From positions 108,652 to 172,651 of the forward strand of contig JBDHWW010000001.1 of assembly GCA_039810425.1 (NCBI GenBank): a stretch of 64,000 bases of DNA. Reading direction: 5' to 3'. The DNA is from Pseudobdellovibrionaceae bacterium. GTDB taxonomy: Bacteria > Bdellovibrionota > Bdellovibrionia > Bdellovibrionales > Bdellovibrionaceae. The notes beneath the pieces are model-generated. The model made no database searches and was not told the DNA's origin. It saw only the letters and a program-made list of their open reading frames with translations. Within the stretch, counting starts at the first letter, position 1. Each line of letters opens with the position of its first letter. Position numbers and translations under genes: made by a program. Positions 60,063 to 64,000 of the stretch are shown piece by piece.

Positions 60063-60089
60063 AACCGTCTCTTATAAAGAGTGCGACAT

Positions 60090-60130
60090 AGGGAGTTAGC
60101 TCAGTTGGTAGAGCGCCACCCTTACAAGGT
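60090..60130 (+). pseudogene. 5' half of tRNA-Val(TAC), att-like duplication
   Basis: 60087-60130 is identical (44 bp) to 60282-60325 and diverges just after the anticodon loop. Confidence 0.92.
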
Positions 60131-60207
60131 AGCGAGAATTTGTTCTTTGAAAATTGAATAGTGATAAGTTGTTGAGATGATTTTGAAATCATAAACAGCG
60201 ATCAAGT

Positions 60208-60426
60208 AAATGGTAAAAGAGTTTGTGAAATTGGTAAAAAGGTAGAAATACATTTTATCAGCTATGAATTGAAAATTAAATCATAGGGAGTTAGCTCAGT
60301 TGGTAGAGCGCCACCCTTACAAGGTGGATGTCGCAGGTTCGAATCCTGTACTCCCTACCAAGTACTTGAAATCACTATTAAATTTTAATCTTAAAAAATC
60401 AAAAATGGTAAAAACGGTTGGTAAAA
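60208..60426 (+). repeat. Four TGGTAAAA direct repeats flanking the tRNA (candidate integrase arm sites)
   Basis: aaatggtaaaa at 60208 and 60403; ttggtaaaa at 60231 and 60418. Confidence 0.6.
60285..60360 (+). tRNA. tRNA-Val(TAC)
   Basis: 76 nt; acceptor AGGGAGT/ACTCCCT, D-arm, anticodon arm CCACC-CTTACAA-GGTGG, GTTCGAATC T-loop, encoded CCA. Confidence 0.98.
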
Positions 60427-60650
60427 TGGGTCAGGTCTTAGGATTGACCAAGAACAATGATCAGTATGAAGACGTGCCTGATGAATTGAAGTGGGCGATT
60501 CCACTTCATGAACATTTGGTCAGTCCTGAAATGCAAACCTGGTTTGATGAACGCAAGGCTCAGTCTGAGCAACGCGTGGAAAAAGAAATCTTTAGCCTCC
60601 AGCGAGAGGCATCGAAAAAACGTCTAAAAATTCTGGTGCGTGAATCCTGA
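60405..60650 (+). CDS. Possible small hypothetical protein
   Basis: 81-aa frame with a plausible helical middle, but the start lies in the repeats and the end is antisense to the displaced recombinase tail. Confidence 0.3.
   Translation: MVKTVGKMGQVLGLTKNNDQYEDVPDELKWAIPLHEHLVSPEMQTWFDERKAQSEQRVEKEIFSLQREASKKRLKILVRES
60592..60650 (-). repeat. Displaced copy of the recombinase 3' end (direct repeat A)
   Basis: Minus strand encodes RIHAPEFLDVFSMPLAGG*. 60614-60650 matches 62831-62867 at 34 of 37 nt. Confidence 0.9.
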
Positions 60651-60656
60651 CCTTTT

Positions 60657-60688
60657 TAAAAAGAGCCCTGTCTGAGGATGACCAGGGC
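60657..60688 (-). terminator. Terminator of the GNAT operon
   Basis: Minus strand GCCCTG..CAGGGC followed by TCTTTTT. Confidence 0.65.
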
Positions 60689-60711
60689 ACAATAGCTGTT
60701 AACTTCGACTT

Positions 60712-61173
60712 TTAAAGACCGACATTTTTGATCAAGAGCAAGCACGGATTGTGTTCACCCCAAAGAGTTTTAAATTCTTCGACTGGCAAAAAACCAACTC
60801 CAAGGTAAAACTTCCGAGTTCGGTCGTACTCCTCGTTTGACCTTGATTCACTCAGGGTCTTCACGGTCAAGTATTGGTAGCCTTTCTGACGAAGATATTC
60901 CTCAGCGTGAAGAATCATTTGCTGGCCGATTTTTTGGCGATGGAACTGTGGTAGAATACCCATGACGTGGACTTCTGCGGTGTATTTGTTGTGGCGGTTT
61001 AAAGCCAGAAATCCTTTAACACCAGAATCATTTTTCGCCACAAGCATTGGCATATCTTGAACATCTTTGATGTAGTCTAAAATAGCTGATTCAATGCCGA
61101 ACCATTTTGGCAATGAGCGCAGTATTTTTTCGCAGATTTCAGATTTACTCTTTTCTATAAATTCATATTTCAT
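60712..61173 (-). CDS. GNAT N-acetyltransferase
   Basis: ILRSLPKWFG, AEVHVMGI..FHRQKIGQ (motif A), YDRTRKFY...GF. Confidence 0.9.
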   Translation of the reverse strand: MKYEFIEKSKSEICEKILRSLPKWFGIESAILDYIKDVQDMPMLVAKNDSGVKGFLALNRHNKYTAEVHVMGILPQFHRQKIGQQMILHAEEYLRQKGYQYLTVKTLSESRSNEEYDRTRKFYLGVGFLPVEEFKTLWGEHNPCLLLIKNVGL

Positions 61174-61180
61174 TTTTGTC

Positions 61181-61771
61181 TCATTTCTTTGCGTTGTATG
61201 GCTTCTTCGCTTTCAACCCAATGTCTTCTGGATTGGCGACGTAGATCAGGTGATCTGTCCACTTTCCATATTCAAACCAATACCGCTTCTTAATTCCTTC
61301 GCGCTTCATACCAATGGCTTTGGCGAGCTTGATGGAAATTCTGTTGTCCAAGTTGATCGCGGCCTCCAGACGGTTCAAATGCAAATGCTTGAATCCAATT
61401 TTTAAACCAGCGAGAGAAGCCTCAGTGCCGTAACCTTGGCCCCAATGGCGATTATAAATTTGGTAACCAAAATTTGCGAACTGATGTGTACTGCGAACGA
61501 AAACATCAAAATCAATTTGGCCAATGATAGCGCCGGACTTCTTATCAAAAACATAGTAGCGATAATAGTCGTCGTTCTTAGCCAATGACTCGTGCTCCCT
61601 CTTGATCTTCTGAAACCATTTCCTCGTACACTGACTTGGCTTCAATGGGCCTCGGTCCCATTTATTTTGTTTTGTAAGAGCATTGACGTAAGCATCGTAC
61701 CAAACATCATAGTCGCCATTTTCGAGTGGACGTAGAATGAGTCTTTTTGTTTTAAAGGTTAGGCGCTTCAT
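61181..61771 (-). CDS. GNAT acetyltransferase, RimJ/RimL type
   Basis: TKRLILRPL, GYQIYNRHWGQGYGTEA, LNRLEAAI..DN..SIKLA...GM.REG. Confidence 0.9.
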   Translation of the reverse strand: MKRLTFKTKRLILRPLENGDYDVWYDAYVNALTKQNKWDRGPLKPSQCTRKWFQKIKREHESLAKNDDYYRYYVFDKKSGAIIGQIDFDVFVRSTHQFANFGYQIYNRHWGQGYGTEASLAGLKIGFKHLHLNRLEAAINLDNRISIKLAKAIGMKREGIKKRYWFEYGKWTDHLIYVANPEDIGLKAKKPYNAKK

Positions 61772-62559
61772 GATGGCCTCCCGCTTGGGTAGAAGGCCCA
61801 CTCTTCCATTTCACAGAAAACACGGCAGCCATGAGATTCAAACAGTTTTCTCATCGCTTTGTTTTCAGAATGGGTTCCGCCGTGATAGAGCTTGCCGTCT
61901 TGGTCTTTCATCATTGTGAAGCCGTGACGGTGAACCCATTTCCCAAGATGTTTTCCTCGATGACCTGGAATCAAGCCCATATATGAAATACGAGACCAAC
62001 CCGATTCTTTATTGATCTGAGCGACCGCTAAAGCGCATGGTCGATTTTCTTGAAATCCAATGGCAATATATTCAGGGCCACTTGTGTATTCATGGTGCTG
62101 AAGCCAATCTTGAATGAAGTCTTCTAGGCTTTCATTTGGATCGACATCCAATGCTCCCTCAACAACCTCTTTGGTGAATTGGGCAATTTGCTGCTTACTC
62201 CAGTTCAGAGTCTTTGCTGTCTTCCAAACAAGTGGAGTTCCTTGCTCGTCAGGAAGATCTTTAACATCGCATTGATATTCAATTCGTCCTGCTTTTTTAT
62301 GAAAGCCTAAGTCTTGGAAGAGCTTTTTAAAGGTCTCTGCCTCGTACTCAAGACGAATTCTGGTCTCAATGGATTCTGCTCCGAATTCAATAGCGGCAGA
62401 CTTAGCTTGGATTAACAAACCAAGCCAATGCTCTTCATTCAGTCGCTTCTCAGGTCTATTGTATTTAATTGCGTAAACATTCGCCCACAGTTGTTCTGCG
62501 GACGCGACTCCCCAGGAATTACCTAAAGAGTCAGGGTGAACAAATTTTTTGCTGTTCAT
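61768..62559 (-). CDS. GNAT acetyltransferase (probably two-domain)
   Basis: YMGLIPGHRGKHLGK, N.AMRKLFESHG. GGAG RBS before ATG 62559; ATGA overlap with the next gene. Confidence 0.85.
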   Translation of the reverse strand: MNSKKFVHPDSLGNSWGVASAEQLWANVYAIKYNRPEKRLNEEHWLGLLIQAKSAAIEFGAESIETRIRLEYEAETFKKLFQDLGFHKKAGRIEYQCDVKDLPDEQGTPLVWKTAKTLNWSKQQIAQFTKEVVEGALDVDPNESLEDFIQDWLQHHEYTSGPEYIAIGFQENRPCALAVAQINKESGWSRISYMGLIPGHRGKHLGKWVHRHGFTMMKDQDGKLYHGGTHSENKAMRKLFESHGCRVFCEMEEWAFYPSGRPS

Positions 62560-62563
62560 AATT

Positions 62564-62690
62564 CTCCATAAAAGGCCCAAATAAATTGAGCGTAAATTAA
62601 AAGTTTACGCAGCCTTTTAAGGAGTTTTCAGGAACACATATTGTGAATTAAAAATGTGTCTTACGACTACTTCACTGACAAGAAGGCTGC
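62564..62690 (-). promoter_or_regulatory. Candidate translational attenuator with alternative hairpins
   Basis: The RBS-containing arm 62564-62577 pairs with 62611-62624 around an inner GCGTAAA/TTTACGC stem. A competing 8-bp pairing joins 62609-62616 to 62683-62690 inside the leader ORF. Confidence 0.65.
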
Positions 62691-62714
62691 AAAGTCTGAA
62701 TTTAAAGTTTTCAT
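62667..62714 (-). CDS. 15-aa leader peptide MKTLNSDFAAFLSVK
   Basis: AAGGAGG RBS 6 nt before the ATG, directly downstream of a consensus promoter. Confidence 0.7.
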   Translation of the reverse strand: MKTLNSDFAAFLSVK

Positions 62715-62748
62715 AGCAAACCTCCTTAGTTTGATAATTGATGATTCA

Positions 62749-62777
62749 AATCTAGCGCGATGGTCTGTATATGTCAA
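62749..62777 (-). promoter_or_regulatory. Sigma70 promoter of the leader/GNAT operon
   Basis: TTGACA-N17-TAGATT on the minus strand. Confidence 0.8.
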
Positions 62778-62814
62778 ACTGGATTTCGCCTTAAGCCTTC
62801 AACATTACTTGCAG

Positions 62815-63849
62815 CTAACCAATGGACTGGGAGAAAACGTCTAAAAACTCTGGTGCATGAATCCTGATATAGCCCTGCGTGGTTCGGTAATCCTCGTGCA
62901 GACAGCATCGCTGTAAGAAAGCTGGATTTCCTTTGTACATTTTATCAAGATGAATTGCTCCGATGGTCGCATAGCTGTGACGCCAATCAAGCGGAGTAAG
63001 AAATTTGAACCCACATTCTTTGGCAATTCGCCTCCATGTTTTAGAAATCTGGCCAGGTTTATTTGGGTACAGCGGATCTTTGTCTGCGAGATGCTTTTTT
63101 AGATAGCGAGCGACTTCGGTAATTATTTCGACTGAGGGTTGAATCATTTGAACAGCTATCGGTTTTCCCGCTGATGTTTTTGTCGCATCTTTTTGTGTGA
63201 TGTATCCTTTTTTTCCGCGACTGCGGCCACTGATGATATTATCTCTAACCAAGAAATATGGAATCTTCGCATCAGGGAAAAGGTTTTCTGCTTTCATGCC
63301 GGCAAAGTTTCCACGTCTTAAACCCGTAATGACTCCAAAGTAAAGTCCATATGCTAGGAGTTTCATTTCTGACTTTTCTTTATAGGTCCTGTCGATTTTT
63401 ATTTTCATATCTTCAATATCTTTCAGCGAATAAACCTCTTCGGATCGTTTATTTGCAGAGTGGTCGCGTTTTTGCTGCTCAAGAGTCAATGAAACCCAAA
63501 TTTTAAATGTGTCTTCTTTACCAATGTAATCATGCTTTTCGCAAAAAAAGATGAATTGGTTAATGGTGCGGCAAAGGACGTTGTATGTGTTGTGCGAGTA
63601 TTTATCGCCGTTCTTTTTCTTGGCGGTTCTAACGTGAAGTTCGGCTTGATTTCGATACTGCCTGAATTGTTTTGGATGAGTACATCCTTTAGAGAAAAAC
63701 CAAGGTAGCCAAAAGTTTTTCATGTAACTGTAGTAATCAACGGGGATGGCCGTATCATCTTTGAAGGCTTTAAACTCTTCAAGTACAGGTTCAAAATCGA
63801 AGTCCTTGGATTTAAGTTCAATCTTTTCCATCGCTCGATATGAGGCCAA
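62815..63849 (-). CDS. Tyrosine recombinase/integrase (N-terminus uncertain)
   Basis: TGLRRGN (Arg I), LDWRHSYAT (Arg II box), LHEDYRTTQGY (His and catalytic Tyr). Confidence 0.85.
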   Translation of the reverse strand: MASYRAMEKIELKSKDFDFEPVLEEFKAFKDDTAIPVDYYSYMKNFWLPWFFSKGCTHPKQFRQYRNQAELHVRTAKKKNGDKYSHNTYNVLCRTINQFIFFCEKHDYIGKEDTFKIWVSLTLEQQKRDHSANKRSEEVYSLKDIEDMKIKIDRTYKEKSEMKLLAYGLYFGVITGLRRGNFAGMKAENLFPDAKIPYFLVRDNIISGRSRGKKGYITQKDATKTSAGKPIAVQMIQPSVEIITEVARYLKKHLADKDPLYPNKPGQISKTWRRIAKECGFKFLTPLDWRHSYATIGAIHLDKMYKGNPAFLQRCCLHEDYRTTQGYIRIHAPEFLDVFSQSIG

Positions 63850-64000
63850 GGCAAACTGTGAACTCAGTTCTTGTTCAAGGCGATGTTTTAATTTCTTAAA
63901 TTCAGTGTTCTGTTCGGCCTGCTCTTGCCCTCTAAGTCACTATGGTCGAAGCACGCACTAATCCATTGAACAACCAGCGGAGCTGTCCTTACTCGACGAA

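Follow-up and report, generated by a model that had tools for sequence, protein, structure and literature searches.

We analysed a stretch of 64,000 nucleotides from a Pseudobdellovibrionaceae bacterium (contig JBDHWW010000001.1 of assembly GCA_039810425.1, positions 108,652 to 172,651), called the window below, which forms the final 64 kb of its contig (C1) in an assembly of 3.54 Mb and 149 contigs. Close to its end the window carries a transfer RNA (tRNA) gene for valine, a small open reading frame (ORF), a unit of three genes of the GNAT family and the gene of a tyrosine recombinase (the integrase), and a sequence of 37 nt is found in direct repeat on both sides of the GNAT unit. This locus is the tRNA-Val end of a P4-like integrative island, about 17-19 kb long, of a Bdellovibrionales bacterium. 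By comparing it with related loci, we show that the overlap between the integrase gene and the small gene facing it is a cargo slot which has been reused, and we discuss how the slot may have been filled.

The two copies of the repeat lie at 60614-60650 (copy A) and 62831-62867 (copy B), are identical at 34 of 37 positions and are spaced by 2217 bp. Searched for as a 34-nt degenerate pattern with at most 3 mismatches, the repeat gives exactly two matches in the window and none in any of 100 shuffled sequences; the same two places are its sole copies across the whole assembly. Copy B, on the minus strand, is made of the codons IRIHAPEFLDVFS of the integrase: the codon of the predicted catalytic tyrosine is at 62869-62871, and the repeat begins in the following codon. 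Through copy B the integrase ends as TTQGYIRIHAPEFLDVFSQSIG (…VFSQSIG) before its stop codon, so that QSIG and the stop (62815..62830, minus strand) constitute a new tail. Copy A, on the plus strand, is formed by the last 11 codons and the TGA stop (60648-60650) of the small ORF. On the opposite strand it is the displaced original end of the integrase: it reads IRIHAPEFLDVFSMPLAGG (…VFSMPLAGG) up to a stop at 60592-60594, and includes beyond the repeat a relic of the original tail, MPLAGG and its stop (60592..60613, minus strand). In the integrase frame each of the three mismatches between the copies falls on a third codon position and leaves the amino acid unchanged (CAT/CAC, GAG/GAA, TTC/TTT). 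The coordinates of the repeat, its identity and spacing, its start right after the tyrosine codon and the synonymous character of the mismatches had all been given in a previous reading of the locus (the sequence-only reading), and every one of them holds. The motif AGCCCTG flanks both copies, at 3 bases from one and 13 bases from the other; since these offsets are out of register, it does not extend the homology. Neither copy was reported to contain inverted repeats.

The small ORF (60426..60650, plus strand; 74 aa from MGQV, or 81 aa from 60405) is convergent with the integrase gene and conserved beside it. A tblastn search located it in 17 further loci, and an alignment of 14 members has D19, W23, A24, P26 and E29 invariant. 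It matched no Pfam or PHROG family, and its AlphaFold model combines a short helix with a long C-terminal one (mean predicted local distance difference test score, 80). We then surveyed the 19 loci that show the end of the integrase gene as well as the small ORF, the stop of one of them (L031) being read by hand; nine more distinct loci were left unscored, the small ORF being undetected there or the contig ending. The two genes overlap tail to tail in 13 of the 19 loci, are separated by a gap of 104 nt in one, and are separated by cargo in the remaining five. The overlap measures 4-59 nt in 12 of the 13 loci, and the thirteenth, L044, in which the integrase is broken, reads -156. The overlap of the integrase and the small gene is thus the ground state of the locus, and in related elements the slot is either empty or filled with unrelated genes, which is what defines a cargo hotspot. 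In one locus (L052, 6371-9036) the overlap is intact and 2.6 kb of DNA, including a GNAT-like ORF of 184 aa, stand between the small ORF and tRNA-Val; this may be a second cargo slot.

A close relative of the window integrase, P0036, has an empty-type end. The two proteins are 95% identical over 338 residues, belong to the same 90% cluster and are sisters, with supports of 100/99, in an integrase tree built without the tails. P0036 ends in …RIHAPEFLDVFSMPLAGG (VFSMPLAGG), which is the reading of copy A. This is the empty allele that the sequence-only reading had predicted, and it supports the view, taken there also, that an insertion into the 3' end of the integrase gene exchanged its last residues. 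The allele of the window is a P0036-like allele to which 2217 bp were added, P0036 being compared as a protein. At the level of DNA, the integrase genes of L028 (genome G040) and L030 have 76-82% nucleotide identity with that of the window, end in …VFSMPLFGG or …MPLAAE, and are joined straight to DNA homologous to 60092-60650. Among the 17 C-termini of the close clade, 15 are of the empty type MPLxGG (P0002-P0006, P0036, P0037, P0039-P0045 and L043) and two, those of the window and of L029, are of the type QSxG; we excluded P0038, which is partial at its C-terminus, P0032, which has an internal deletion, and P0035, an unrelated member of 54 aa. In P0032, on a contig of 910 nt, about 70 C-terminal codons are deleted and the frame continues into the antisense of the small ORF, as in a decayed allele.

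L029 is filled with another cargo, as the sequence-only reading had also anticipated for some allele with the same junctions. Its integrase ends in …VFSQSMG and is followed by the gene of a secreted protein of 537 aa, by a second copy of the repeat, by the same small ORF and by tRNA-Val. Its copies A and B are only 74% identical to each other. Its tail is in register with that of the window at 12 of 15 nt, and the window tail is unlike MPLxGG. The cargoes of the two loci are not significantly alike: 58 of 1000 shuffles do as well past the new stop codon, and 255 of 1000 ahead of copy A. The window and L029 are on different branches of the integrase tree, the empty allele being the sister of the window.

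We mapped the junctions of the five filled loci on their nearest empty relatives, with coordinates relative to the stop of the reference integrase. Repeats were detected by an ungapped scan together with this mapping, as short BLAST searches overlook the diverged copy A of L029. The side of copy B ends at -22 and the side of copy A starts at -58 in the window, which gives the duplication of 37 nt; in L029 the values are -22 and -59, with a duplication of 38 nt. In L031, which belongs to a clade with 49% identity and a different sequence at this place, they are -4 and -34, with a duplication of about 30 nt (24 of 28 positions identical). In L033 the B side ends at +34 and the A side starts at +27 to +50, without duplication, and the end of the small ORF is rewritten; in L037 the B side ends at -9 and the A side starts at +12 to +69, which is a deletion. 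Five unrelated cargoes (the GNAT operon, the 537-aa secreted protein, a 126-aa ORF, a pair of 208 and 212 aa and a 550-aa protein) are therefore inserted at four junction pairs, which are confined to a stretch of about 130 nt; two of these pairs show no duplication. In all five loci the cargo genes are co-directional with the integrase, and in none is there more than one repeat-bounded unit. In both types of duplication copy A begins at most 1 nt from the stop codon of the small ORF; the other edge falls 4 codons past L421, the last invariant residue of the integrase. The edges of the repeat are thus at gene limits in two clades whose sequences differ.

The direction of the substitutions separates the two copies. 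At all three mismatches copy A has the base of L028, L030 and L043, so that copy B is the derived one, and at the third its new base is common to the copy B of L029. The sequence-only reading had taken the synonymous mismatches to mean that both copies were selected as coding sequence of the recombinase. That the changes arose in the copy which still encodes the integrase is enough to make them synonymous, and they do not prove that copy A was selected as integrase. This part of the claim does not survive, since copy A is the 3' end of the small ORF. In L029, moreover, copy A reads IRIQASEFLDAFS in the integrase frame, which is a non-synonymous drift, and in the frame of the small ORF it stays KKRLKILTLES.

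The inserted unit measures 2180 bp (60651..62830, minus strand). In the order of transcription it holds a promoter-like site, TTGACA-17-TAGATT (62777-62749), which matches at 10 of 12 positions, a leader ORF of 15 codons, MKTLNSDFAAFLSVK (62667-62714), three GNAT genes (61768-62580, 61181-61801 and 60712-61173) and, at 60651-60688, a hairpin followed by a U-run, all on the minus strand. The sequence-only reading had listed a promoter, a leader, three GNAT genes and a terminator here; promoter-like sites are no more numerous in the cargo region overall than in shuffled sequences, and the hairpin folds no better than shuffled sequences (z 0.6). The core of the operon, 60722-62730, with the leader included, is 72% identical to three-GNAT operons of two related genomes, G029 and G031, in which this integrase was not found and whose native operons have no copy of the repeat. 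The core of the cargo is an ordinary operon of the bacterial family. Because the leader region lies within the 72% homology, the segment 62575-62730, in which the leader ORF and alternative hairpins precede the first GNAT gene on the minus strand, looks like a conserved leader of the attenuator type. There is no transposase within the 2.2-kb unit, and with PADLOC none of eight cargo proteins matched a known defence model.

The state filled with the GNAT unit is stable: contigs from three other runs, belonging to different studies (X2-X4), show the same filled junctions at 90-95% identity, and one of them (X2, record 12) spans both junctions. In the contigs of four runs no join across 60651-62830 was listed, but rare forms do not show in contigs, so that this is no evidence on excision. 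Another genome, G113, has the A side of the window and the last GNAT gene at 93-96% identity, in a form cut by an insertion sequence (IS); the small ORF of this genome is frameshifted. Transposase genes resembling IS481 and IS3 are found directly after the integrase stop in L043 (268-1500) and inside the GNAT cargo in L059 (G113:C659, 1167-2400). In the clade of L031, the integrases of L036 and L053 end in …AFED with a TGA and are followed by a sequence unlike the antisense of the small ORF, so these two loci may be further filled alleles. A search of metagenome contigs with the integrase alignment gave 595 pattern matches, none of which was confirmed, and a search of such contigs with a 23-nt degenerate core pattern gave none; the integrase alignment gave 23 pattern matches in viral contigs, again without one that was confirmed.

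The island itself uses the tRNA gene. The complete tRNA-Val(TAC) (60285..60360, plus strand) is carried within the island, at 253 nt from copy A, and an exact 44-nt copy of its 5' half (60087-60130, compared with 60282-60325) lies 195 nt upstream. Because homology among related islands ends at this fragment (60087..60130, plus strand), we identify it with the left end of the island, attL. The relatives of the integrase converge on a tRNA-Val or a tRNA-Gly gene. In G040, G384 and G385 tRNA-Val recurs, as a second copy or as a 3' fragment, at a distance of 17.5-19 kb; in G384 this far copy lacks its first 9 bases and has in common with the near gene an identical block of 39 nt, from the D-loop to the variable loop. 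The attachment (att) site of the island is thus a 31-39-nt block of tRNA-Val, and the island has an integrase beside a tRNA gene and tRNA fragments at both ends, as expected of an island inserted in such a gene; the far end is known from G040, G384 and G385, the contig of G000, the genome of the window, breaking first. The island of G040 encodes a D5-like protein and a DnaB-like helicase, a pair resembling the D5/DnaB-like primase-helicase of P4, and for this reason we call the island P4-like. The DNA between the tRNA gene and copy A belongs to the island too. Used as a DNA query, the small ORF with the spacer matched only two of 61 related genomes, G000 and G040, both of which have this integrase lineage, and left unmatched six others with more distant relatives of the integrase. 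As the small ORF and the spacer occur only in genomes carrying this lineage, they are island DNA and not host DNA, and they accompany the integrase in hosts whose flanks differ.

Several observations concern this side of the locus. Another two repeats, likewise 195 nt apart (60208-60234 and 60403-60429), contain TGGTAAAA motifs, which could be arm-type sites of the integrase. Between the window and L029 identity reaches 97-100% in the 151-nt spacer and the complete tRNA, although the integrases are only 80% alike, and L028 and L030 have in common a second type of spacer and tRNA. We had considered that the 93.6% likeness of the window and L029 on the tRNA side could mark a "scaffold" shared by filled loci; we dropped this idea, as a sliding-window comparison places the likeness in the tRNA and the spacer, copy A and the 3' part of the small ORF being only 83-88% alike. 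We also considered, as a link with the att site, the closest resemblance of the repeat to tRNA-Val, an 8-mer, GAATCCTG, in the T-loop. It looked suggestive, but it lies outside the att block, and we rejected it as not significant, since 231 of 2000 shuffles do as well or better.

The integrase gene of the window is not complete. It occupies 62815..63923 on the minus strand (the ORF was called at 62815-63849 and homology runs to 63924), its relatives are about 430 aa long, and about 59 N-terminal codons are absent; a search of the whole assembly for these 59 codons found nothing. The gene is interrupted by a multi-copy, IS-like repeat, the first 77 bases of which end the window (63924..64000) and which is also present at five other contig ends. 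This repeat, of about 1.7 kb, corresponds to a contig of 1683 nt, whose depth in the source run is about 6.5 times the local one. With the gene cut at 63924 and 59 codons missing, this copy is probably dead. As to its family, the window protein matches PF00589 with an E-value of 2.4e-4 and 21.4 bits, under the curated threshold of 27.1, and two integrase families of PHROG, phrog_216 (2e-16) and phrog_1 (9e-16). A precomputed PF00589 match exists on some of its relatives. The residues R263, K309, H376, H403 and Y412 (in the numbering of P0002) are invariant in 22 members of the family, and we take them to belong to the canonical R-K-H-R-H/W-Y set; at the place of the second arginine the family has either R or K (pattern W[RK]H). 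From these matches the window protein appears to have a catalytic domain of the Phage_integrase type. Its match to the NCBIfam model "integron integrase/XerA" reaches 29.8 bits for a cut-off of 220.

We favour, with moderate confidence, the following explanation: the slot is a permissive cargo hotspot of a P4-like island, filled by recombination which is not site-specific, and its scar is trimmed by selection. A three-GNAT operon of the chromosomal type, with its own promoter-like site, now occupies the overlap in the lineage of the window. Its entry would have been by illegitimate recombination or by homology-facilitated illegitimate recombination (HFIR), which combines a homologous with an illegitimate crossover during DNA uptake, possibly anchored by homology in the integrase gene, and selection, together with later turnover of the cargo, would trim each scar to the functional limits of both genes. 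The repeat of 37 nt is, in this reading, the portion of the old overlap which both genes need: copy B keeps the integrase intact through …VFS, before the new short tail QSIG, and copy A keeps the small gene intact to its stop codon. Recombination between the two copies could remove the cargo without a scar and restore an allele ending in …MPLAGG. Several facts weigh against this explanation. Random breakpoints would rarely give an A copy starting within 1 nt of the stop of the small ORF, as is seen in both duplication events. One junction pair and a homologous tail of 15 nt are common to the window and L029, whose cargoes are unrelated and whose integrases stand on separate branches of the tree; repeated site-specific insertion would neatly explain this. 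The direction of the cargo is uniform, as a polar site would make it, and the sample of filled loci is five.

The sequence-only reading had proposed that the integrase gene itself is the att target and that the locus is an integron-like site of capture. In such a scheme the 37-nt sequence would be a secondary recombination site, where circular cassettes carrying the same sequence and a QSxG tail are inserted and excised by the island integrase or by another recombinase, as in an integron without attC. It accounts well for an empty allele which is precisely the one predicted, for the identical junctions of the window and L029 around different cargo with tails matching at 12 of 15 nt, for the constant direction of the cargo, for the sharp edges of the repeat and for a filled state on two separate branches. 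However, att lies in tRNA-Val, which the repeat does not significantly resemble, and neither copy was reported to have inverted repeats; the junctions of L031, L033 and L037 are different, those of the last two being without a repeat; none of the five loci has more than one repeat-bounded unit, the native GNAT operons lack the repeat, the two copies of L029 are only 74% alike and the window integrase is truncated. The edges of the repeat match gene limits, moreover, and a recombination site has no reason to do so. Junctions which differ, two of them without duplication, are not expected of a site-specific system, and their spread therefore leaves the integrase-driven mechanism unsupported, so that we regard this scheme as unlikely. 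Unlikely also is a related one, in which the overlap would be a dedicated docking site where the island integrase, alone or with the small protein, inserts and excises promoter-bearing units, each event switching the C-terminal tail of the integrase. If it were true, it would amount to a gene-capture platform of a new kind, placed in the recombination module of P4-like islands.

The remaining explanations fare worse. A staggered cut of about 37 nt, followed by insertion and fill-in, as for transposon-like or casposon-like elements, would give direct repeats, and the insert which the repeats border here carries no recombinase; but the copies differ at 3 of 37 positions, the final CTCC of copy B is common to the copy B of L029 and not to copy A, no terminal inverted repeats were found, the unit has no transposase, and the repeat shrinks to about 30 nt in L031 and to nothing in L033 and L037, so that we find this very improbable. 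Copy A could also be the remnant of a second integrase, left by a deletion between tandem islands. Such islands are known at tRNA genes (the Islander table, in the part we rely on, has 125 cases; PMC4383910), and the sequence-only reading had stated that a copy A extending into a decayed second integrase would refute its model. No such extension is seen: between the cargo and the integrase there is no tRNA fragment, second spacer or second small ORF, the likeness of the copies ends within one base on both sides, and close relatives join the same sequence directly in the empty allele. This explanation is close to refuted. In a cis-mobilizable element (CIME) or a tandem accretion, a unit without an integrase would be bounded by the att sites of the neighbouring element; the repeat is unrelated to the att block of the island. 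Finally, the repeat could be the att core of the island itself, inside the integrase gene, with host DNA past copy A, after the model of Mx8, whose attP is within int and whose integration gives int a new 3' end (as described in passages of PMC6070905 and PMC4383910). This is refuted for the present island by the restriction of the small ORF and spacer to two of 61 genomes, those with this integrase lineage, by their association with the integrase across differing host flanks, by the absence of a third copy of the repeat in the genome and by the tRNA-Val fragments which bound the island, 17.5-19 kb apart, in G040, G384 and G385.

The way in which the fixed hotspots of satellites and prophages gain and lose accessory and defence genes is not yet settled, and this family of islands is a small case in which it can be read. 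Because the slot lies within the overlap of two genes, each filling leaves a scar which can be compared across alleles, and one of the empty alleles matches a filled one at 95% identity. The family also shows a simple route by which the C-terminal tail of an integrase may change without the island moving, reversibly if the cargo is lost.

The case differs from that of the Mx8 IntP and SSV integrases, where it is the integration of the element which alters the gene: here the island integrates in tRNA-Val, the DNA past copy A is island DNA, and the change comes through a small internal insertion. In the model of the sequence-only reading the locus would resemble an integron, with a recombinase gene beside a site where single units come and go in one orientation. 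Unlike in integrons, whose cassettes are mostly promoterless and often in arrays, the cargo is inserted where the recombinase gene ends and not at an attI upstream of it, this cargo has its own promoter-like site, and the units are single and do not form arrays; no attC-type inverted repeats were reported at either end of the cassette. Hotspots for defence or accessory cargo in P4-like satellites and P2-like prophages, between psu and int in P4 and, more rarely, between int and att in P2 and in phage-inducible chromosomal islands (PICI), are described in the relevant sections of PMC9122126 and PMC13586616. Those sections of the second, a survey of 2026, have the exchange of hotspot cargo as "presumably different" from integration, with homologous and illegitimate recombination as guesses (PMC13586616). 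As in those hotspots, and as for phage "morons" in general, there is one slot between conserved genes by the integrase, with unrelated gene sets and with empty forms; cargo of that kind has its own promoter, and the cargo of the window has a promoter-like site. The differences are that the host phylum is here the Bdellovibrionota and that the slot is inside a tail-to-tail gene overlap, so that filling it duplicates the overlap and rewrites either the last residues of the integrase or the end of the small gene. The displaced 3' tips of Rhs, contact-dependent inhibition (CDI) and type VI secretion system (T6SS) effector loci, for whose orphaned ends the HFIR model was put forward (PMC5361080, in its account of these loci), have the same layout as that found here: the gene has acquired a new 3' end, new cargo comes next, and the old tip lies downstream. 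In our case the gene is a recombinase, there are no arrays of several tips, and the old tip is reduced to 37 nt and a tail of 21 nt, which would have been kept because it doubles as the end of a gene on the opposite strand.

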